A stretch of 64,000 bases of DNA from Candidatus Omnitrophota bacterium (lineage in GTDB: Bacteria; Omnitrophota; Gorgyraeia; Gygaellales; Profunditerraquicolaceae), in NCBI GenBank assembly GCA_028716965.1, contig JAQUOV010000009.1, positions 22,043-86,042 of the forward strand. The letters are read 5' to 3'. A program made the position numbers and the translations under genes. Under the pieces are notes generated by a model. That model was not told the origin of the DNA. It saw only the letters and a program-made list of their open reading frames with translations, and did not search any database. The stretch's first letter is position 1. Each line of letters opens with the position of its first letter. This document shows positions 1,473 to 52,816 of the stretch, in pieces.

Positions 1473-3713
1473 TTAACCTTGCCCGACTTTCTTCTCCAGC
1501 TCTTTTATCTGCTTTTTAAGCTCTAATATGCGTTCTTCCCTGCCGATAGAAGCTTTGTAAAAAACCTCCAGCTCATGAAGGTCTTTCTTTAATTTTTGCT
1601 CTGCCTGCTTAAGCTCGGTGATATCGCGGAATGTCCAGATACGCCCAAAGTATTTACCATTTTTATCGATAACTGGCGAAGAATACCTGTCAAAAATCAT
1701 CCCGTTCTTAAATTCTATCTCATCGCGGCTCTTCTCATCTTTATGCTCATAAAGATAGTTTACCTTATCCAGGAACTGCTGCGGGTTCTTTATTTCGTTT
1801 ACCACATACTGCAGAAGTGTTTCATCTTTCTTGTCTTCGGCAATATCTTCCGGCACTCTCCATAGTTCAAGCAGCCGTTTATTAATCAAAATCTTCTGTC
1901 CTTTTTCATCAACGACAAGTAACCCGTCAAGAGAGGCTTCTTTTTGGGCTTCCAGTAACTCCGTTTTCCGTTCCAGGTCATCTTGTATTTTCCTGCTCTC
2001 GGTAATATCGCGGATAATTGCCTGGTAGAATCTTTTCTCACCGATCTTAAAGGCACGCAGGCTGACTTCAACCGGAAATTTTGTTCCGTCCTTACGTTGA
2101 TGCAAGGTATCATATACGGCTTTGCCTGTTGCCTGTACGAGATTAACCTGTTGGGTAAACCTATCTTTTGCCTCCGGCGCGCGTAATTTAGAGGCATGCA
2201 TACCGATTAATTCATTATAGCTATATCCATAAACATCCTGGGCGCGCTCATTGACCTCCAGAAGGATAAAATTCTCATCAAGAAGCATAATGAAGTCATT
2301 GGCATATTTGGTCAAATAACCCAAACGCTCCGCGTATTCCGATATTTTTTTCTTCGCCTGCTGGCGCTCTGTAACATCAAGCCCATAAAGGTTGGCGTAA
2401 CCGGAATCAACAATCGGCGTAACGTAGAAAGAATACATTTGTTCCCCGTGTTCAATATCGCATTGCTGCTCTAAACCGCCCTCTAATGCCTTAGAAACTA
2501 AATCCCGCAATACGGATGGGGCTAACTGCCCGATTTGCAGGTTCCAGTTTGTCAAACGCCTTAATCCGGATTGGTTAATATAAAGAAGCGTGCCGTCCCT
2601 GTTAATACGTAATACCGGATTAGGATCTTCGGCAGGAAACCTCGCCTGGCTTACAATTTCATCCTGATACTGCTTACGCTTGCTAATATTAGAATAAATG
2701 GATACTACGAGACCGGAAGGCAGCTTTAATACATAGTTTTCAGTCCAATGCTCTATACGGCTGTCCTTATAGAGAACACCCGGAAGGTATTCTGATTCGC
2801 CTGTACGCCAGACCCGGCGCAAGACATCCAAGAGGCCGATCTCTGACACCGCCGGGAATGCTTCCGTCACCCTTCTGCCGACAATATCTTCCCGTTTGAC
2901 CTGAGATATCTTTTCCCCCATCTTATTAAGGTTGACAAATACAAAATTTTCCCCTTCGTCAACCGCCTTAAAGATAGCCACTCCGTCTGCTATATTTTCA
3001 AATAAATGCTGGAAGCTTTCTTCGCTATGCTGCAAAGCTATTTTAGATACAGCAAGCCGTATTCTTTCCTGCTCACCTCTGCGTTGAAAGAGTAAAGATG
3101 TTCCCAAAAAGATAAAAATTAACAGGGTAACAAATACCGGCGGGAGAGATTTATAAATAACTGATGCCATCCAGTTACGTGCGTCAATATCCATGCCAAG
3201 CACAGCCAGAAGCCTGCCGTTTTCCGGATTAACAACCGGGACTAATGCGCTTATCCATTTACCCCAGCGGTCGGATACCGGACCTTCAACGGCCTCTACC
3301 TCCTTCGCAAAAACATTCAGCAGTAAGGGAGAAATCTCGGTATATATCTGGCCAGGAGGAGAATAATCCTTGGAATCCTGCGGTTCGGAGTCAACAAAAA
3401 AGAAAACTTCCCCGCTGGGCCGCTGCCCCATCAGATAAGTAAAACGGCATTGCGGGTTGGCAGAACGCGCTAAAGCTAATTGTTCTTTGAGGCGCTGGTA
3501 ATCCGGGGAATCTATATCAGCCTCGGAACCGCTTAAGTTCAAGATATGCCTTATGTTAACAGCCCTCTCCAGCATCCGCGCCTGGACAAGTAATTCTCTG
3601 CGCATACGCCTGTCTTCCAAACGGATGACCACGCCGGTAAACGCTATACTCACAGCCAGGATAATCAAAATCACGATAAATATTATTGTCTTGCTATAAA
3701 TCTTATTTTTCAT
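1473..3713 (-). CDS. Membrane-anchored multi-PAS sensor protein (TM, periplasmic domain, TM, 3-4 PAS domains, C-terminal coiled coil) with no recognisable output domain
   Basis: 746 aa. N-terminal TM helix, a periplasmic domain of about 170 aa, a second TM helix (LPPVFVTLLIFIFLGTSLLF). Repeated PAS-like blocks (…DGVAIFKAVD…, …DFIMLLDENFILLEVNERAQDVYGYSYNELIG…, …DGLLVVDEKGQKILINKRLLELW…, …FGRIWTFRDITELKQAEQ). It ends in a heptad-rich coiled coil and has no HisKA/HATPase, GGDEF, EAL or HD-GYP motif. Confidence 0.75.
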   Translation of the reverse strand: MKNKIYSKTIIFIVILIILAVSIAFTGVVIRLEDRRMRRELLVQARMLERAVNIRHILNLSGSEADIDSPDYQRLKEQLALARSANPQCRFTYLMGQRPSGEVFFFVDSEPQDSKDYSPPGQIYTEISPLLLNVFAKEVEAVEGPVSDRWGKWISALVPVVNPENGRLLAVLGMDIDARNWMASVIYKSLPPVFVTLLIFIFLGTSLLFQRRGEQERIRLAVSKIALQHSEESFQHLFENIADGVAIFKAVDEGENFVFVNLNKMGEKISQVKREDIVGRRVTEAFPAVSEIGLLDVLRRVWRTGESEYLPGVLYKDSRIEHWTENYVLKLPSGLVVSIYSNISKRKQYQDEIVSQARFPAEDPNPVLRINRDGTLLYINQSGLRRLTNWNLQIGQLAPSVLRDLVSKALEGGLEQQCDIEHGEQMYSFYVTPIVDSGYANLYGLDVTERQQAKKKISEYAERLGYLTKYANDFIMLLDENFILLEVNERAQDVYGYSYNELIGMHASKLRAPEAKDRFTQQVNLVQATGKAVYDTLHQRKDGTKFPVEVSLRAFKIGEKRFYQAIIRDITESRKIQDDLERKTELLEAQKEASLDGLLVVDEKGQKILINKRLLELWRVPEDIAEDKKDETLLQYVVNEIKNPQQFLDKVNYLYEHKDEKSRDEIEFKNGMIFDRYSSPVIDKNGKYFGRIWTFRDITELKQAEQKLKKDLHELEVFYKASIGREERILELKKQIKELEKKVGQG

Positions 3714-3721
3714 AATAAACC

Positions 3722-3771
3722 CTAAAAAAACTCAAGCCCGCTTGCGCTTCAGGCGCAAAAAGCTTGAGTTA
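3722..3771 (-). terminator. Intrinsic terminator-like hairpin plus U7 tract ending 10 nt upstream of the PAS sensor gene start (attenuator-like)
   Basis: Minus-strand RNA reads AACUCAAGC-UUUUUGCGCCUGAAGCGCAAGCGG-GCUUGAGUU followed by UUUUUUU. The outer stem is 9 bp with a nested 6-bp stem. It lies between the 4018 gene and the ATG at 3713. Confidence 0.6.
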
Positions 3772-4017
3772 AAGATTACATTATGCAAGGGCGTTACTCT
3801 TATCCAAATGAGCCATCTTCACCCCGTATTGAGTAACTATTATTAATTATTAATATATCATATAGGCTGCGCTTATCAAGACGTTTTATATATCTGCGCA
3901 GGCTCCTTGGAGTTATGAAATAATTATTTTACAAACGGAATGCTGGGGGCCCCAACTCCATGGTTAAAATACCCGCAGCTTCAGAAACCTGCAGAAAATC
4001 TCCTGGTAAGATTGCTT

Positions 4018-4440
4018 TCATTCTATTTCTCCCAACAAGCCGGAGATTTCGCTTTGTATGTAATCAGAGAGTTCTGCTTTATTTTCGGCGTATTCAATAA
4101 TCTTATCAAGATCTTTCCATTTTACCTCTTTGCCGCTTTTGACTAACGACAGGATAAGAGTCTTGGCGCAAACCTTATAATAACCCGCATAATACCCCTC
4201 CCCGTTATTCCCCAAGATTACAACCTGAAACTCCAATTTTCCCGAAGCCAGGGCACCCTTAAATTCAGTTTCTATCGCTTCCTTGCAGTTTCTCTCCAGA
4301 TCACGGCAACTCGGACTGCGGGATGTACCGCGAAAATAATACACTATAACTTTACCGCTTGGTTGATTATCTGCACAAAGAGGGGAAATAAAATCAAGGC
4401 TAACCCAAACAATAAAAAAAATCAAGAATATTCTTTTCAT
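4018..4440 (-). CDS. Secreted hypothetical protein (signal peptide, three Cys)
   Basis: N-terminal MKRIFLIFFIVWVSLDFISPLCA signal-peptide-like segment. It sits 5 nt downstream of the ArsP-like permease and is probably co-transcribed with it. Confidence 0.5.
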   Translation of the reverse strand: MKRIFLIFFIVWVSLDFISPLCADNQPSGKVIVYYFRGTSRSPSCRDLERNCKEAIETEFKGALASGKLEFQVVILGNNGEGYYAGYYKVCAKTLILSLVKSGKEVKWKDLDKIIEYAENKAELSDYIQSEISGLLGEIE

Positions 4441-4445
4441 TCTTT

Positions 4446-5405
4446 CTAAAGCAGGATCTTTTGCAAGAAATTAAACAAATAACCCGTAAAGATAATCGCT
4501 ACCGTAGTCACCATAAAGAATATAGCGATTAATTTTAGCTGCATCGCCCTTCTCAGCATAACTGCCTCAGGAAGGCTTAATGCTGCGACTGCCATCATAA
4601 AAGCTAACGCCGTACCAAGCGGGAATCCTTTCTGGAATAAAGCTACGGCTATAGGTACGATTGCGGCGCAGCTTCCGTACATTGGCACCCCGATAATTGT
4701 AGCAAGCGGCACACTAAAAAAACCTGTCTTGCTTATGAGGTTTCTAACAAGCTCCTGTGGTACAAAATTATGTATTAATGCGCCCAGGCCTACTCCTATT
4801 AAAACCCAAAACCAAAGTTTTTTAATAATCGTGCTTGCCTCTTTCACTCCAAACAATATACGACCCTTAAAACCTTTTGAGTCCTTTTCAAAGCAATCCT
4901 GGTTATTCTGGCTGATTAAATCTTTTACAAGATACCTTTCCAGCTTCATTTTTCCTAAAATAATTCCGGAAACAACTCCTATTATTATGCCGCTTAAAAC
5001 GTAAAAAAATGTGATTTTAAAACCAAAAAAACCGAGCATCAGCACAACAAGATACTCATTAATCAAAGGCGAGCTGATCAGAAACGAAAAGGTCACCCCC
5101 AAAGGTACCCCTGCTTCCAGAAAGCTTATAAATATGGGTATTGAGGAACAGGAACAAAACGGGGTTATTGCGCCGAATATTGAAGCCAGAAAATGCGGAA
5201 ATATTTTCTTTCCGGCAAGCCACTGCTTTATTTTATCTGCCGGTAAATATGACCTAAGAAACCCGATAGCAGAGATTAAAATAAATAAAAGCAATAAAAT
5301 CTTTACAGAATCATAAATAAAGAAGTTTACTGCCTGAGCCAATTTGGCCTGCGGGCTTAATTTAAATAAAGAATAGGTCAGCCAATCTACAATTAACTGC
5401 AGCAT
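4446..5405 (-). CDS. ArsP/DUF318 (COG0701) family permease
   Basis: 319 aa polytopic membrane protein with the characteristic TPFCSCSSIP cysteine motif of the PF03773 ArsP-type permeases. Confidence 0.8.
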   Translation of the reverse strand: MLQLIVDWLTYSLFKLSPQAKLAQAVNFFIYDSVKILLLLFILISAIGFLRSYLPADKIKQWLAGKKIFPHFLASIFGAITPFCSCSSIPIFISFLEAGVPLGVTFSFLISSPLINEYLVVLMLGFFGFKITFFYVLSGIIIGVVSGIILGKMKLERYLVKDLISQNNQDCFEKDSKGFKGRILFGVKEASTIIKKLWFWVLIGVGLGALIHNFVPQELVRNLISKTGFFSVPLATIIGVPMYGSCAAIVPIAVALFQKGFPLGTALAFMMAVAALSLPEAVMLRRAMQLKLIAIFFMVTTVAIIFTGYLFNFLQKILL

Positions 5406-5492
5406 GATTTCTTGCCTGCCTTCTTCTCATTACAACAACAAGATTTTGTTTTTGCTTTTTCTTGCATTTTCTTATCCAGCCTATCGATCATC
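5395..5492 (-). CDS. Possible 32-aa cysteine-rich small ORF (MIDRLDKKMQEKAKTKSCCCNEKKAGKKSCCS) overlapping the permease start
   Basis: ATG at about 5490-5492, between DUF134 #1 and the permease. Its stop overlaps the permease ATG in a different frame. It has six Cys in 32 aa. It is below the 60-aa cutoff of the ORF track, and the exact frame depends on a 1-nt ambiguity in my reading near 5400. Confidence 0.3.
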
Positions 5493-5529
5493 CTGGCAAA
5501 TAACCCCTTTTTTCTTCCCTCTTGATTAG

Positions 5530-5841
5530 TCAAGCCTTCCATCCAGACCTCCTTTTAATCTTGCAACAACCTCCTTCAATTTTAATCGCTTTTATGTTTA
5601 CCAGGCCATCCGCTACTTTCCTTCTTGCCAATGCTACGATACGCGAAAATGTCGGACGGGATATGCGCATAAGCCTGGCGGCATCTGCCTGCTTTAATCT
5701 CTCAAGATCAGCTAAACGCATAGCTTCAAACTCATCAAGGCTAAGATAAACATTCTGAAGCCTGCTAAGCGGTTTACAGCGCGGCTTAAAGCACCTCTCC
5801 GCCGGAACGCATTTCACCCACCTGGTCTTTTTAGGCCGCAA
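5530..5841 (-). CDS. DUF134 / UPF0251-family predicted DNA-binding protein (paralog 1)
   Basis: 103 aa, MRPKKTRWVKCVPAERCFKPRCKPL…LSLDEFEAMRLADLERLKQADAARLMRISRPTFSRIVALARRKVADGLVNIKAIKIEGG. This matches the DUF134 architecture: an N-terminal Cys-containing arm plus a sigma-70 region-4-like HTH. It uses a TTG start with an AAGGAG RBS. Confidence 0.8.
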   Translation of the reverse strand: MRPKKTRWVKCVPAERCFKPRCKPLSRLQNVYLSLDEFEAMRLADLERLKQADAARLMRISRPTFSRIVALARRKVADGLVNIKAIKIEGGCCKIKRRSGWKA

Positions 5842-5856
5842 ACCCTGCTCCTTTAG

Positions 5857-5906
5857 TTATGAACATATGTTCATAACAATTCTAACACAACCTTCTCCGT
5901 TGTCAA
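5857..5906 (-). promoter_or_regulatory. Sigma70-like promoter (TTGACA-16-TAGAAT) with a perfect 20-bp palindrome TTATGAACATATGTTCATAA immediately downstream of the -10 and upstream of the DUF134 #1 RBS
   Basis: Read on the minus strand: TTGACA (5901-5906), 16-nt spacer, TAGAAT (5879-5884), then the palindrome at 5857-5876, then AAGGAG-N9-TTG start. Confidence 0.5.
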
Positions 5907-5996
5907 TAAAAATTTCCCGGCCTGATAAAGGATGGGTTTTGCTGCAGGGAATTTAATACTGCGGCTTATCCGCTGCATAGAACTTAATACAAAGTT

Positions 5997-6758
5997 TCAA
6001 TCTTTACCGAAAAGCAGGTTAAATGGCAATACAGCAATCCCCCAGGCGCCTTTTGCCCCGGTCTTGGCCGTACCCCAGGCCGAATTGAATGTATCCCCTA
6101 TTTGAGAAACCACCGGTATAATCTTCAGGTTGATTAACTTGCCTATATCTGTATTCTCTATTGCCTTAGAAACAACCAGCCTGACTACCTCTTGTTCGTC
6201 TAAAAGGTTAACAAACGCCGCATTTTTTATGCCGATCGGATAGATATGTTCTTTTTTATTCAACCCGCTATAATCAACAAACCTGACCTGGCCAACGCTT
6301 AATACCAACACATCAAAATAATAAGGCGTCTTGTCCTGTATAGCGGCATTTTTATCCCTTAAGGGGTTGATCTCTTCTATATTTACCTTGCCTTCCTTGT
6401 TTTTTATTATATTCAACCGTTTAAGATTTAAACCCAAAATATAAATATTCGGTTTCTTACGGGTAACCATTTCTACAGGGTCAAATACAAAATGGATCGC
6501 TTCAATATAGGCAAGCTCTCTTTCTTCAAAATCACCGGGGTTATAAACAGTTACACCGCTTACTCCCACATGCGCCAGCAAAGGAGAAAATTCTATTTCT
6601 TCTATCGAAACATTAATACCCAGGCCCTGCTCTATTTGCCCCTCTACAATCTCCTTGATCTTTAAATGTTTTGTAATAATAAAACTGGCGATTAAGAAAA
6701 TAACCAAAAGAAGAAAGATTATGCCGAACGCATAAACTAACCTTTTTACAACCTTCAT
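5997..6758 (-). CDS. Hypothetical membrane-anchored protein (single N-terminal TM)
   Basis: 253 aa with an N-terminal hydrophobic helix (LVYAFGIIFLLLVIFLIASFII). No family recognised. It lies downstream of the ABC-2 efflux genes. Confidence 0.45.
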   Translation of the reverse strand: MKVVKRLVYAFGIIFLLLVIFLIASFIITKHLKIKEIVEGQIEQGLGINVSIEEIEFSPLLAHVGVSGVTVYNPGDFEERELAYIEAIHFVFDPVEMVTRKKPNIYILGLNLKRLNIIKNKEGKVNIEEINPLRDKNAAIQDKTPYYFDVLVLSVGQVRFVDYSGLNKKEHIYPIGIKNAAFVNLLDEQEVVRLVVSKAIENTDIGKLINLKIIPVVSQIGDTFNSAWGTAKTGAKGAWGIAVLPFNLLFGKD

Positions 6759-33711: not shown

Positions 33712-34146
33712 CTAAGATATCTCTTTCAGCCAGGACTCGATTTTTTGATTGATCTGTTCCTTTACTACCCGCGTCTTCTCTAACTTCTCTTCCCATGTTC
33801 CCTGGAATCTTGCCGGGTCATCAAAACTCCAGTGTATCCTTCGGGTAGCAGATGTCCCCGGGAAAACAGGGCATTTCTGCGCCTGGGATTCATCGCAAAC
33901 CGTAATCACAAAATCATACCTTTTCCCCTCTCTGTAAAAATCAAACACGCTCTTGGTCTTGTTGGCTGATATGTCAATACCGATTTCGCGCATAACCTCA
34001 ACTGCTAACGGGTTCAATTCGCCCGGTTCAAGCCCTGCGCTTTCCACCTCAAAATTCTCTCCGCCGTCGCGTTTCAATAGAGCCTCGGCCATCTGCGACC
34101 TGGCCGAATTATGCACACAAACAAACAAAACCTTTTTTTTATCCAT
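33712..34146 (-). CDS. LMW-PTP-fold arsenate reductase (thioredoxin-coupled ArsC type) or low-molecular-weight phosphatase
   Basis: CX5R P-loop (CVHNSAR) plus the downstream Cys pair [10 protein letters not shown], reminiscent of Bacillus-type ArsC. It is the last gene of the pst-phoU operon. Confidence 0.65.
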
Positions 34147-34168
34147 AACGACGATCCCCCGATAAAGA

Positions 34169-34837
34169 CTATTGTAACTTTTCCGGATGATGCTTGACTA
34201 CCTCGGCGTTAACCATATAAATGACATCTTCGGCGATATTAGTGGCGTGGTCGCAGATACGCTCAAGGTGACGGGCGATCAGAAGAAGCGGCACTGCGCG
34301 CGCAGCCGAAGAAGGGTCTTTGCCCATATATTCTTCAATCAGCTCCTTCTGGACTAAATTGCGCAGTTTATCTGCCTGGTTGTCATGTAAAATTACGCTG
34401 CCGGCTAACTCCGCATCTTTATTCACAAAAGCGTCTAATGCGTCTTTTGTCATTTGCTGGGCAAGGTTGGTCAACTTCGGGATATCAATGAGCGGCTTAA
34501 GCAACGGTTTACCCGCCAGGTCATTTACGCGCTGGGCGATATCTACCGCCAGGTCCGCTATTCTTTCCAGGTCGGTTGAGATCTTCATGGACATGGTGAT
34601 AAAACGCAAGTCTATTGCCATCGGCTGCCTGAGGGCCAATAAATCAAGGCACCTTTCATCAATGGCATTTTCCATTTCGTCAATGGCCCGGTCCTCTTTG
34701 ATCACTTTGCCTGCCATCTCTATATTTAACTCCTTCAGCGATTCAACTGATTCAAAGATCGCCCCCTCCACCAAAGTGCCCATCTTAAGCAACTGCTTCT
34801 TTAAATCTTCCAACTCCTGGTCTAAATGTCTTTCCAT
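34169..34837 (-). CDS. phoU: Phosphate transport system regulator PhoU
   Basis: 222 aa, two PhoU repeats, adjacent to pstB. Confidence 0.85.
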
Positions 34838-34864
34838 ATCAAACCTTCTTTCTTTTTGTATTTT

Positions 34865-35626
34865 TTATCCGAACCTTCCGGTGATATAGGCCTCGGTCTT
34901 GGGATCATTAGGCTTGGTAAAAATATCCTGGGTTTTACCAAACTCAATAAGTTCCCCCATTAAGAAAAATGCCGTATAATCTGAAACCCTTGCCGCCTGC
35001 TGCATATTATGCGTAACGATTACAATGGTATATTCTTTTTTCAACTCCGTAATCAGTTCCTCTATTTTTGCGGTGGATATAGGGTCTAGACTGGCGCACG
35101 GCTCATCAAACAGGATGACTTCAGATTCCACTGCCAGGCTCCTGGCAATACACAATCTTTGCTGCTGCCCTCCGGACAGCCTTAAGGCGCTGTCATGCAG
35201 CCTGTCCTTTACCTCCGGCCACAACGCCGCTTTCTTTAATGACCATTCTACCTTTTCTTCAATAAATAATCTATCCTTAATTCCGTTTACTTTAAGGCCA
35301 TAGCTGATATTGTCAAAGATGCTCTTTGGAAAAGGGTTGGGTTTCTGAAAAACCATCCCTACCTGCCTTCTGATCTCAACGGCATCAACAGAAGGGCCAA
35401 AGATATCCATGCCGTCCATGTATATACCGCCGAGAAGGGAGGTATTAGGCACCAACTCATTCATGCGGTTTAATAACCTTATGAATGTAGATTTACCGCA
35501 CCCCGATGGCCCGATGATTGCCGTAACATGGTTCTTATAAATATTAAGATTTATGTCTTTTAACGCATGGGTCTTGCCGTAAAAAAAATTTACCTCGTCG
35601 GCATACATCTTTATGCTGTTATCCAT
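34865..35626 (-). CDS. pstB: Phosphate ABC transporter ATP-binding protein PstB
   Basis: [34 protein letters not shown]. Confidence 0.9.
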
Positions 35627-36467
35627 GATAACTCCTCTGTCTTTGACGGATGAATATAGCTATAGCTGAAATCAACAAAACCAAGAAAAGAAGGATCAGG
35701 CTGCATCCATAGGCAATTGCCTTTTGTTTAACCGGATGCGCTCCTTCAGTCATCAAGGCGTATATATGATAAGGCAGCGCCATAACCTCGCTGAAAATAC
35801 TATTGGGGTAGCCGCGCTTATAAAAAGCGGCGGCGGTAAAAAGTATCGGTGCGGTTTCGCCTGCCACCCTGCCGACGCTTAATATGACGCCCGTAAGTAT
35901 GCCCGGTAGCGCCGTAGGCAAAACTATCCTTTTGATCGTCTGCCATTTACTTGCCCCAAGGGAAAGCGATGCCTCGCGTATTGAGTGCGGCACAGCCACC
36001 AGGGCCTCCTGTGAAGCTGAAATAATCAAAGGAAGCGCAAGTATCCCGAGGGTAAGGCTTCCTGAAAGTATGGATACCCCAAAACCGAATAATTTTACGA
36101 ATACCGATAAACCAAACAGGCCGAAAACAACCGATGGCACTCCGGCAAGGTTATTAATGCTGATACGGATTATATTGACTACGAAACTTTTAGGCGAGTA
36201 TTCGCACAGGTATATGGCACAGGCAAGCCCCAACGGAACGGCAAAAAGCATTGAGCCTAAAGTCAAATAAAACGTTCCGACGATAACAGGAGCAACCCCT
36301 CCTTCGGTCATGGCGTTGCGTGGAGCCTGGGTGAGAAACTCCCAGGAGATCACCTGGATCCCCCTGGAGAAAATGAAATAAATGATTGTCCCCAGGAAGA
36401 AGAGGGTGGTCAGTATGCATAAGAACAACGATGAAAACCCTATATTTTGAAGGACCTTCCCTTTCAT
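35619..36467 (-). CDS. pstA: Phosphate ABC transporter permease PstA
   Basis: Six-TM permease with an EAA-type loop. Placement in the operon. Confidence 0.85.
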
Positions 36468-37339
36468 CCGCTTAACCCCAGTTTTATCCTGAACTTGCGT
36501 GATATAACCTCGGCGATGATGTTAAATACAAAGGTGATCAAAAACAGTATCAAGGCTATCGCAAAAAGCGCATGGTAATGGCTGCTGCCCATGGGGGCCT
36601 CTCCCATCTCTGCGGCAATGGCGGCGGTCATTGGGCGCACCGGCTCTAAAAAAGTATGCGGGATGACTGCCGAGCCGCCGGCAACCATAAGCACCGTCAT
36701 CGTCTCACCTATCGCCCGGCTCATTCCTAAAATCACCGCAGTAGATATTCCCGAACCTGCTGCCGGTATTATTACCTGCGTCAACGTCTGCCATCTGTTT
36801 GCTCCTACGGCAAAAGAAGCCTCCCTGAAGGAATGCGGCACATAACTTAGGGCATCCTCCGCTATACTGCAAACAGTAGGCGTAGCCATTAAACCCAGGA
36901 TAAAGCTTGCATTTAAAGCAGTCAGGCCGGTGGGAAGATGGAATATCTTCTGAATAAATGGCGTAAGCACCACCATACCGAAGAACCCATAAACAACCGA
37001 AGGGATGCTGGCTAAGAGCTCAATAAGTGGCTTCAGGAGCCTTCTCTGCCTGAAACTTGCCAGTTCATTCAGATAAAGCGCGCTGCCTACGCCCAAAGGA
37101 ACACAAACAATTACCGCCCCTAAAGTAACCCAGGCCGAAGCCAGGATCAAAGGCAGTATCCCAAATTCCGGAGGGCTATAAGTAGGATACCAGAACTTGC
37201 CTAATACAAAATCGCCGATACTTATTTTTGAGAATATAGGAAGGCTTTCCTTAAAAAGGACAAAGACTATACCGACCAGAAATACCAACGAAGAAAAAGC
37301 CAATATAGTAAATATCCACTTATATATTTTTTCTTTCAT
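36464..37339 (-). CDS. pstC: Phosphate ABC transporter permease PstC
   Basis: Six-TM permease. Placement in the operon. Confidence 0.85.
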   Translation of the reverse strand: MKEKIYKWIFTILAFSSLVFLVGIVFVLFKESLPIFSKISIGDFVLGKFWYPTYSPPEFGILPLILASAWVTLGAVIVCVPLGVGSALYLNELASFRQRRLLKPLIELLASIPSVVYGFFGMVVLTPFIQKIFHLPTGLTALNASFILGLMATPTVCSIAEDALSYVPHSFREASFAVGANRWQTLTQVIIPAAGSGISTAVILGMSRAIGETMTVLMVAGGSAVIPHTFLEPVRPMTAAIAAEMGEAPMGSSHYHALFAIALILFLITFVFNIIAEVISRKFRIKLGLSG

Positions 37340-52480: not shown

Positions 52481-52816
52481 TTATTTTTTATGTTTTATTT
52501 TTGCAACCGTATATGTCCCGCCGCCTATCCGGATGGCCTTGCCGCAAAAAAGCGCCTCGGCTACTTTTTTGCGGGCGGATTCAATGATATTGCCGAAGGT
52601 CTGGCGGGAAATACCCATCTTCTTTGCCGCATCCGCCTGGTACATCCCCTGGCGGTCGGCAAAACACATTGCCTCGCACTCATCAATAGTCAAAACCAGC
52701 TCTTCCAGCAAAGCCAGAGGTATCCCCTTAGGCTTAAAATATCTTACCTTAGGTTCCCCCCTGACACAACGGCATTTTCTCGGCCGGCCGCGATCCCTTT
52801 TCATATTTTTTAGCAT
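52481..52816 (-). CDS. DUF134 / UPF0251-family predicted DNA-binding protein (paralog 2)
   Basis: 111 aa, …MKRDRGRPRKCRCVRGEPKVRYFKPKGIPL…TIDECEAMCFADRQGMYQADAAKKMGISRQTFGNIIESARKKVAEALFCGKAIRIGGG. Collinear with paralog 1. Confidence 0.8.
   Translation of the reverse strand: MLKNMKRDRGRPRKCRCVRGEPKVRYFKPKGIPLALLEELVLTIDECEAMCFADRQGMYQADAAKKMGISRQTFGNIIESARKKVAEALFCGKAIRIGGGTYTVAKIKHKK

Follow-up and report, generated by a model that had tools for sequence, protein, structure and literature searches.

A stretch of 64 000 nt from a Candidatus Omnitrophota bacterium (GenBank assembly GCA_028716965.1, contig JAQUOV010000009.1; the whole stretch is called the window below) was investigated around a gene for a small protein of the DUF134 family. 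This gene is the first of four on the minus strand that share one predicted promoter, the others encoding a 49-aa Cys-rich protein, an ArsP_1-family permease and an ArsF-family protein, and a palindrome lies between the −10 box of the promoter and the ribosome-binding site (RBS). An earlier reading of the region (the sequence-only reading) had taken the DUF134 protein for an autorepressor with the palindrome as its operator. The features are listed in Table 1, together with a second DUF134 gene (paralog 2) of the window; they point to a DUF134 protein that probably controls its own arsenic resistance (ars) operon.

Table 1. Features of the two DUF134 loci in the window
Feature	Position	Strand	Description
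DUF134 regulator (paralog 1)	5530..5841	−	103 aa; PF02001, 79.5 bits (cutoff 27), residues 2–94
−35 hexamer, TTGACA	5901..5906	−	Direct reading; positions 79–90 % conserved across 81 orthologous promoters
Extended −10, TG-t-TAGAAT	5879..5887	−	16 nt past the −35; TAGAAT itself at 5884–5879
Predicted operator, TTATGAACA-TA-TGTTCATAA	5857..5876	.	Two inverted 9-bp half-sites, variable 2-bp centre
RBS, AAGGAG	5848..5853	−	6 nt (cagggt) ahead of the TTG start at 5841; purine-rich in orthologues
Cys-rich small protein, KKGFFARMIDKLDKKMQEKAK...SCCC-x7-9-SCCS	5393..5542	−	49 aa; 13-nt overlap with each neighbouring gene
ArsP_1-family permease	4446..5405	−	319 aa; PF03773, 223.8 bits
ArsF-family protein	4018..4440	−	140 aa, N-terminal signal-like segment; NF040494, 76.1 bits (cutoff 60)
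DUF134 paralog 2	52481..52816	−	phmmer E 2.2e-22 to paralog 1; helix ISRQTFGNI
Operator-like palindrome, TTAGCATATGCTAA	52810..52823	.	Unique in the window, 0.11 expected; spans −10/+1

The promoter of the DUF134 gene was of the sigma-70 type (TTGACA/TATAAT-like hexamers, 16–18 nt apart), with the last bases of the spacer, TGT, giving an extended −10 element. In a consensus promoter scan it scored 11 out of 12, with TG preceding the −10, and was the top site of the region 3600–6100. Two nucleotides ('tg') separate the −10 box from the 20-bp palindrome TTATGAACATATGTTCATAA (5876–5857), which is separated in turn from AAGGAG by 'ct'. The hexamers with their 16-nt spacer, the palindrome between −10 and RBS and the TTG start, which opens a 103-codon open reading frame (ORF), were exactly as the sequence-only reading had given them, whereas its distance of 9 nt from RBS to start was a miscount for 6 nt. 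The perfect palindrome extends beyond the 20-bp core to 22 bp (5856–5877) and is the longest within the window. Arms of at least 11 were reached in six of 200 first-order Markov simulations of the window, and the palindrome by itself is therefore only mildly unusual and suggestive. The 20-mer occurred once in the window at up to three mismatches (0.00 expected). Transcription is predicted to start at about 5871–5874, and since the palindrome begins 2 nt past the −10 box it should cover this start. A terminator of the upstream AsmA-like gene was considered and rejected, the palindrome being AT-rich, devoid of a T-run and not flagged by a terminator scan.

Conservation was examined in 80 orthologous loci taken from different GTDB species, nearly all of them Omnitrophota and including Ca. 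Velamenicoccus archaeovorus LiM, with protein identities of 71–85 % (73–84 % by best tblastn segment); the promoters were aligned with the palindrome as anchor. All 81 aligned promoters carried the palindrome. Its 16 outer positions were 94–100 % conserved, the next A and T inward 93–94 % and the two central bases 74–84 %; all 16 outer positions were matched in 70 promoters, 15 in nine and 14 in two. The flanks and the spacer between −35 and −10 held about 0–0.3 bits, and the −10 consensus was TGnTAAAcT (T 83 %, G 88 %, T 91 %, A 89 %, last T 90 %). The motif TTATGAACA-nn-TGTTCATAA was fixed 2 nt past the −10 box and stood 11–22 nt ahead of the start codon, and the leader of 11–22 nt was unconserved apart from its purine-rich RBS. 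No secondary site at up to three mismatches was present in the 566 kb around the orthologues, and none within 4 kb at any locus. The sequence-only reading had tied its proposal to conservation of the palindrome upstream of orthologues, and this was borne out, as was the arrangement of a palindrome over the predicted transcription start of a sigma-70 promoter. An inverted repeat over the −10/+1 region of a regulator's own promoter, kept in the orthologues, is the arrangement typical of an autorepressor.

The central tetranucleotide was ATAT in 48 of the 81 promoters and ATTT, AGGT, AAAT, ATAC, CGTT etc. in the other 33. As the outer positions are near-invariant while the central bases vary, the half-sites appear to be selected and not the CATATG centre. 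The earlier description of the palindrome as CATATG-centred is therefore true of the window's own copy, but the key feature in this clade is the half-site TTATGAACA; a CATATG centre as the key feature of the Omnitrophota clade was ruled out by the 33 promoters with other centres. The palindrome is almost certainly a selected protein-binding site.

A conserved inverted repeat at this position could also act as an RNA hairpin in the 5′ untranslated region, serving mRNA stability or translation. If transcribed as a whole, the palindrome folds into a 9-bp hairpin (−10.2 kcal/mol, z −5.8), and its outermost symmetric pair changes in concert (G–C in 25 sequences, A–U in eight). A transcript starting 6–8 nt past the −10 box, however, would lack most of the left arm, and the remainder folded no better than shuffled sequences (z −1.08). 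Symmetric changes are equally expected of a site for a dimer, and the core pairs never vary, hence there is no real covariation and a covariation test was uninformative. No relevant Rfam family was matched, and in a related clade of DUF134 proteins with the helix SRQTFGRI the palindrome (TTATGAGCATATGCTTATAA) lies in an untranscribed position between −35 and −10. A function as a hairpin instead of an operator is thus considered very unlikely.

Public metagenomes were scanned for the exact motif TTATGAAC-N4-GTTCATAA, which listed at least 120 stretches; all statements on metagenome matches below refer to the matches listed. A DUF134 gene started within about 60 nt downstream of the motif in 54 (tblastn) to 56 (hidden Markov model) of 120 matches, and manual inspection revealed further pairs of motif and DUF134 gene that were cut by contig ends or lay 100–300 nt apart. 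Identity to the window protein ranged between 31 and 83 % among the DUF134 proteins linked to the motif, and the recognition helix SRPT-x-x-R-[ILV] was present in all 54 of them. Distant members (31–55 % identity) had NifX-like or DUF5320 genes downstream and not ars genes. NifX-like (Nitro_FeMo-Co) genes accounted for 20 of 49 downstream genes, and Mrp/ParA-type ATPases, ferredoxins and thioredoxins were also found there. Because the same operator precedes DUF134 genes with differing downstream genes, the motif tracks the regulator and not its cargo.

The DUF134 operator shares its 12-bp core, GAACATATGTTC, with the Gram-positive 'Cheo box' (GAAC-N4-GTTC), and one metagenome match (L185) was located upstream of a lexA–dinB-like pair. 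These likenesses raise the alternative that the palindrome is a LexA box, and that the ars operon is under DNA-damage (SOS) control and not autoregulated. The consensus for LexA (DinR) of B. subtilis is CGAACRNRYGTTYC. In the DUF134 clade, by contrast, the core is invariably flanked by T/A plus a further TTA, giving TTAT and ATAA, and not by C/G, and the distribution of the motif is tied to DUF134 genes. Of the 76 GAAC-N4-GTTC sites in 686 kb of Omnitrophota DNA, 73 were this operator and three were others, whilst the 64-kb window held a single such core; no LexA homologue was detected in the 686 kb, which weakens this alternative. The motif moreover follows DUF134 genes across unrelated contexts and phyla and changes with the recognition helix. 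Control by LexA is accordingly regarded as extremely unlikely.

Some copies of the operator occurred in other settings. Two palindromes, TTATGGGCATATGCCCATTA and TTATGAACATATGTTCATAA, lie side by side upstream of a DUF5320–DUF134 pair in another lineage (L132, 10440–10489). In L145 and L146 the same operator was found ahead of DUF5320-like genes, and in L127 and L175 ahead of NifX-like genes. The 20-mer was also found inside perfect palindromes of 28–30 bp, e.g. TCAGTTTATGAACATATGTTCATAAACTGA (L089, 1281–1308; L091, 1951–1980; L114, 7211–7240), on contigs that have SMC-like genes and lack a DUF134 gene, and a related 20-mer was repeated four times with a 100-bp period in L115 (2344–2663).

CATATG-centred palindromes upstream of other DUF134 genes, for which the sequence-only reading had suggested a search, were found in two further clades, each with its own version. 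One is represented in the window by paralog 2 (Table 1), whose orthologues carried TTrGCATATGCyAA at the same position in six distinct promoters. The other is a Thermodesulfobacteriota-type clade with the helix VSRQTFGRI and a C-terminal MJ0401 domain (PF27353), to which TTATGAGCATATGCTTATAA belongs. The palindromes of the three clades share their register around CAT/ATG, and comparison of the clades revealed that P63Q accompanies the replacement of A by G at the fourth base counted from the centre and that R67N accompanies the loss of the outer TGA. The family comprised 3313 representatives at 50 % identity (E ≤1e-3), or 1105 at E ≤1e-10, and among the nearest 150 the helix types were SRPT..R (64), SRQT..R (25), SRAT..R (16) and SRQT..N (11).

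Paralog 2 heads an MMPL/RND transporter operon with the order DUF134-(C_GCAxxG_C_C)-MMPL/RND-TP_0789-like. Its promoter consists of TTGACA (52851–52846), 17 nt and TATTAT (52828–52823), and the annotated ATG (52816) lies inside TTAGCATATGCTAA, exactly 7 nt past the −10, a layout kept in the six orthologous promoters. This suggests that the mRNA of paralog 2 may be leaderless, with its start codon inside the putative operator.

The palindrome might be a true operator and yet be read by another trans-acting protein (ArsR-, TetR- or DeoR/SorC-type) encoded elsewhere, the DUF134 gene being a passenger in first position. DeoR proteins of the SorC type read a very similar half-site, and one exact copy of the 20-mer (L104, 2308–2327), placed as in the window behind a TTGACA/TATATT promoter and preceding a gene for an RND membrane-fusion protein, is located on a 4.7-kb contig with a TetR-family gene upstream of the site and no DUF134 gene. 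The L104 site may be either a trans-regulated target or the site of a different binder. Against a passenger role, the DUF134 gene was the sole constant companion of the motif across ars, NifX-like, DUF5320 and rhodanese contexts, the operator sequence changed together with the recognition helix of DUF134 across three clades, and an ArsR-like gene was near the operon in one of 80 loci. Recognition by a protein other than DUF134 is hence quite unlikely, and the palindrome is very probably bound by the adjacent DUF134 protein.

The window's DUF134 protein matched one from a Candidatus Omnitrophica metagenome-assembled genome at 100 % identity and had hundreds of relatives at 75–87 % identity. Its recognition helix reads S61-R-P-T-F-S-R-I68. 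An AlphaFold model (72-sequence alignment) had a confident core at residues 25–90 and was poor at residues 1–24 and 91–103; the modelled secondary structure comprised a strand (30–33), three helices (35–46, 51–57 and 62–81) and a second strand (85–88), with no wing. A sequence search of the PDB found no solved DUF134 homologue, the one hit being a weak match to DeoR (E 0.44). By structure (Foldseek), the best PDB matches were the DNA-binding domain of B. subtilis DeoR on its operator (7BHY and 8R7Y), at 36–38 % identity over about 41 residues and a root-mean-square deviation (rmsd) of 0.6 Å. The sequence-only reading had described DUF134 proteins as having a helix-turn-helix (HTH) like that of sigma region 4. 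For sigma region 4, Pfam gave a weak hit (Sigma70_r4_2, E 8e-4) and Foldseek gave matches with an rmsd of 0.8–1.0 Å over about 50 residues; the DeoR (SorC-type) domain was closest and sigma region 4 came next. The HTH fold class is common to the DUF134 protein and region 4 of extracytoplasmic function sigma factors (E. coli sigma-E on −35 DNA, 2H27), but the DUF134 protein is predicted to sit as a dimer on a symmetric palindrome and not as a monomer on a −35 element, and it cannot act as a sigma factor because region 2 is absent.

In DeoR, the helix ISRPTVSRLL makes base-specific contacts in the TTGAACA of ATTGAACAAAATTTCAAT, with R34 and R39 involved (PMC11229326); these residues align with R62 and R67 of the DUF134 protein, whose helix, ISRPTFSRIV, is nearly identical. 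The operators are also alike, ATTGAA-CAAAAT-TTCAAT for DeoR and tATGAA-CATATG-TTCATa for the DUF134 protein, both with a 5-6-5 geometry. In other respects the two proteins differ. DeoR has 313 aa and a sugar-phosphate effector domain, responds to deoxyribose-5-phosphate and binds, as a tetramer, a bipartite operator of 39 bp that lies upstream of the −35, whereas the DUF134 protein has 103 aa, no effector domain, Cys-bearing arms and a single 20-bp site over +1. It thus lacks the organization of the SorC/DeoR family (N-terminal HTH and C-terminal effector domain, about 310 aa), and the NCBIfam DeoR model covered only residues 39–85 (19 bits, cutoff 420).

The sequence-only reading had seen the genes behind the regulator as a module of a Cys-rich ORF, an ArsP/DUF318 permease and a secreted protein. 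The genes were as described, but the secreted protein belongs to the ArsF family and the module is an ars operon, recognizable in the window by its genes for an ArsP_1 permease and ArsF, which are co-oriented and share a predicted promoter. At least one ars-family gene was present downstream on the same strand in all 80 orthologous loci (NCBIfam curated cutoffs). An ArsP_1-type permease followed the DUF134 gene in 74 of the 80 and ArsF homologues were found in 52; matches elsewhere in these operons included the arsenite methyltransferase ArsM (NF008823, 352 bits, cutoff 263), ArsE (MTH895, thioredoxin-like; TIGR00412, 105 bits, cutoff 62), ArsF (NF040494, 118 bits, cutoff 60), the ArsG permease (NF040495, 285 bits, cutoff 200), the ACR3 arsenite efflux transporter (TIGR00832, 465 bits, cutoff 283) and a thioredoxin-type ArsC, also above its curated cutoff. 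The most frequent gene order was ArsP-ArsM-ArsE-ArsF-ArsG-ACR3, and that of V. archaeovorus was DUF134-ACR3-ArsC. The functions of ArsP, ArsEFG, ACR3 and ArsC have been summarized elsewhere (PMC9144182).

An ArsR-like gene occurred within 4 kb in only one of the 80 orthologous loci, so that the DUF134 gene occupies the usual place of arsR. Like arsR, it comes first in the operon, upstream of resistance genes behind one promoter, with an inverted-repeat operator over the core promoter; the protein is small and of a size suited to a homodimer, and the cysteines of this clade, which include a vicinal pair in a flexible region, would be candidate ligands of trivalent arsenic, As(III). The fold is unrelated, however, being PF02001 with a three-helix HTH of the sigma-region-4/DeoR type and no wing, and the operator sequence of ArsR is unlike that of the DUF134 clade. 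Neither HTH_5 (PF01022) nor HTH_20 (PF12840) matched the DUF134 protein at E ≤0.01, which places it outside the ArsR/SmtB family. The DUF134 protein is not an ArsR, then, but may function like one.

The 49-aa ORF between the regulator and the permease matched no Pfam or NCBIfam family. It had tblastn matches in about 17–18 of the orthologous loci, in each case with the DUF134 gene on one side and the gene for the ArsP_A-type permease on the other, and the alignment revealed conserved CC(C) and CC clusters. The protein has an amphipathic helix; it could be a small chaperone that binds arsenic and serves the ArsP-type permease.

In the window arsF is the final gene of the operon, whereas the closest relatives have arsF-arsG-acr3; the window's operon is truncated, nucleotide synteny being lost at about 4061–4100, and arsG and acr3 are absent. 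Beyond arsF (region 3714–4100, minus strand) there are a 30-codon ORF overlapping the arsF stop and a promoter-like site (3879–3852), followed by a gene for a 746-aa multi-PAS protein with no detected output domain. A thioredoxin-type arsC (33712–34146; 144 aa, 69 % identical to V. archaeovorus ArsC) lies elsewhere in the window, as the last gene of a pstC-pstA-pstB-phoU operon (33712–37339, minus strand). This placement apparently links arsenate reduction to the control of phosphate uptake. Membership of this arsC in the DUF134 regulon was rejected, the gene being located behind pstCAB-phoU with no motif there.

The candidate sensor residues of the DUF134 protein are five cysteines, arranged as C11-x5-C17-x4-C22 in the N-terminal arm and as the vicinal pair C92–C93 in the C-terminal tail. 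Each was present in 80–81 of the 81 orthologues and all were absent from paralog 2. The association of these cysteines with gene context was counted among metagenome DUF134 genes beside the operator that had at least 800 bp downstream: ars genes followed in 15 of 15 cases with all five cysteines and in one of 16 cases without them, that one being frameshifted. A 63 %-identity relative (L106, 1360–2860) that lacked C22 and the CC pair kept the operator and SRPTFSRI and headed a rhodanese–TauE/SafE operon. ArsR proteins have evolved As(III)-S3 sites repeatedly in flexible regions, sometimes by means of vicinal cysteines. Because the cysteines track the ars context and lie in flexible arms as in ArsR, sensing of As(III) or an organoarsenical is the most economical reading, and we somewhat favour arsenic sensing through the five cysteines.

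A different ligand would leave the autorepressor as it is and make the cysteines a structural zinc site, an iron–sulfur cluster or a thiol redox switch, the operon then answering to redox, sulfide or metal status. Other DUF134 clades are linked to genes for NifX-like and Mrp/NBP35-like proteins, ferredoxins and thioredoxins and have Cys motifs of their own or zinc ribbons, and five cysteines exceed the three that As(III) needs. The exact five-Cys signature was nevertheless restricted to the clade whose genes come first in ars operons, in the metagenomes as in all 80 orthologous loci; the vicinal pair in a flexible tail resembles the arrangement by which some ArsR proteins bind As(III), and the operon of the L106 variant, which lacks C22 and the CC pair, is not an ars operon. 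Such a non-arsenic role is rather unlikely. Two sister clusters (P0241 and P0243) kept a GGCC tail and, in part, the N-terminal cysteines, and had different recognition helices, IHRSTVSRI and VHASTVCRM; both may sense in the arsenic manner while reading another operator.

Taken as a whole, these results suggest that the DUF134 protein is a dimeric HTH autorepressor of the ars operon that is probably released from DNA by arsenic on its cysteines, a reading to which we assign a probability of roughly 0.7. Binding, the sign of regulation, dimerization and the inducer are all inferred in this mechanism. Two SRPTFSRI recognition helices would read the inverted half-sites aTGAACA and TGTTCAt, spaced as pentamer, 6 bp and pentamer and thus about one helical turn apart. 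The bound dimer would block RNA polymerase at the regulator's own promoter, because the site lies directly past the −10 and over the start, and we consider repression at the site to be quite probable. This promoter would drive the regulator, the small Cys-rich protein, the ArsP-type permease and ArsF, to which relatives add ArsM, ArsE, ArsG, ACR3 and ArsC, and the regulator stands in the position held by ArsR in classical ars operons. Once As(III) or a trivalent organoarsenical had bound to the five cysteines, the protein would leave the DNA and the operon would be derepressed.

Several points weigh against this reading, in addition to the LexA-like core of the operator. The likeness to DeoR was non-significant from sequence alone (phmmer E 0.44), and its Foldseek E value was 0.05. 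The Cys-bearing arms were modelled at a predicted local distance difference test score below 55, and owing to this low confidence no metal(loid) site is visible in the model; the five cysteines themselves are equally compatible with a redox switch or with a site for zinc or an iron–sulfur cluster. The ArsP_1 family of permeases is broad, and the window's permease fell under the cutoffs of the named NCBIfam subfamilies, whilst the diagnostic genes for ACR3, ArsM and ArsC are missing from the window's operon. About half of the metagenome matches were not adjacent to DUF134 genes; most of these look like chance occurrences, given their random centres, but a few had the ATAT centre. Full-text literature searches gave no functional study of any DUF134 protein, in agreement with the description of the family as poorly characterized by the sequence-only reading.

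An autorepressor of a resistance operon is an ordinary class of mechanism. As far as the literature was searched, what is new is the scaffold, the defined operator, the correspondence of helix and half-site and the replacement of ArsR throughout a phylum. A broader reading is put forward tentatively, its chances being a little below even: DUF134 proteins would be minimal HTH autorepressors of a DeoR-like kind and form a large family, with at least 3313 clusters at 50 % identity across anaerobic bacteria and archaea. They would share one operator architecture (pentamer, CATATG-type 6-bp centre, pentamer, over the core promoter), and helix positions 63 and 67 would form a code by which SRPT..R reads TGAAC, SRQT..R reads GAGC and SRQT..N reads TTrGC. 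Ligands would be sensed by Cys-rich arms that vary between members. On this broader reading, the Omnitrophota clade would have arrived at an arsenic sensor independently, in place of ArsR phylum-wide, and the previously unnoticed protein of about 50 aa with its CCC...CC pattern, working beside it, could be an arsenic chaperone.

For more than two decades DUF134/UPF0251 has been a 'predicted DNA-binding protein'. The locus gives a precise predicted DNA target, TTATGAACA-nn-TGTTCATAA, that is valid far outside the source genome, and the DeoR DNA-binding domain on DNA serves as a template for predicting which residue reads which base. It also gives one clade a putative role, the control of ars operons throughout the Omnitrophota, a phylum with hardly any cultured members in which ArsR is not encoded beside these operons, together with a concrete sensor hypothesis in five invariant cysteines that track the ars context. 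If the proposed mechanism is true, DUF134 would be a new protein scaffold among the known metalloid sensors and would supply a very small (about 100 aa) arsenic-responsive repressor–operator pair for biosensors, and regulons could be predicted for thousands of DUF134 genes beside NifX-like, iron–sulfur and thiol-redox genes.

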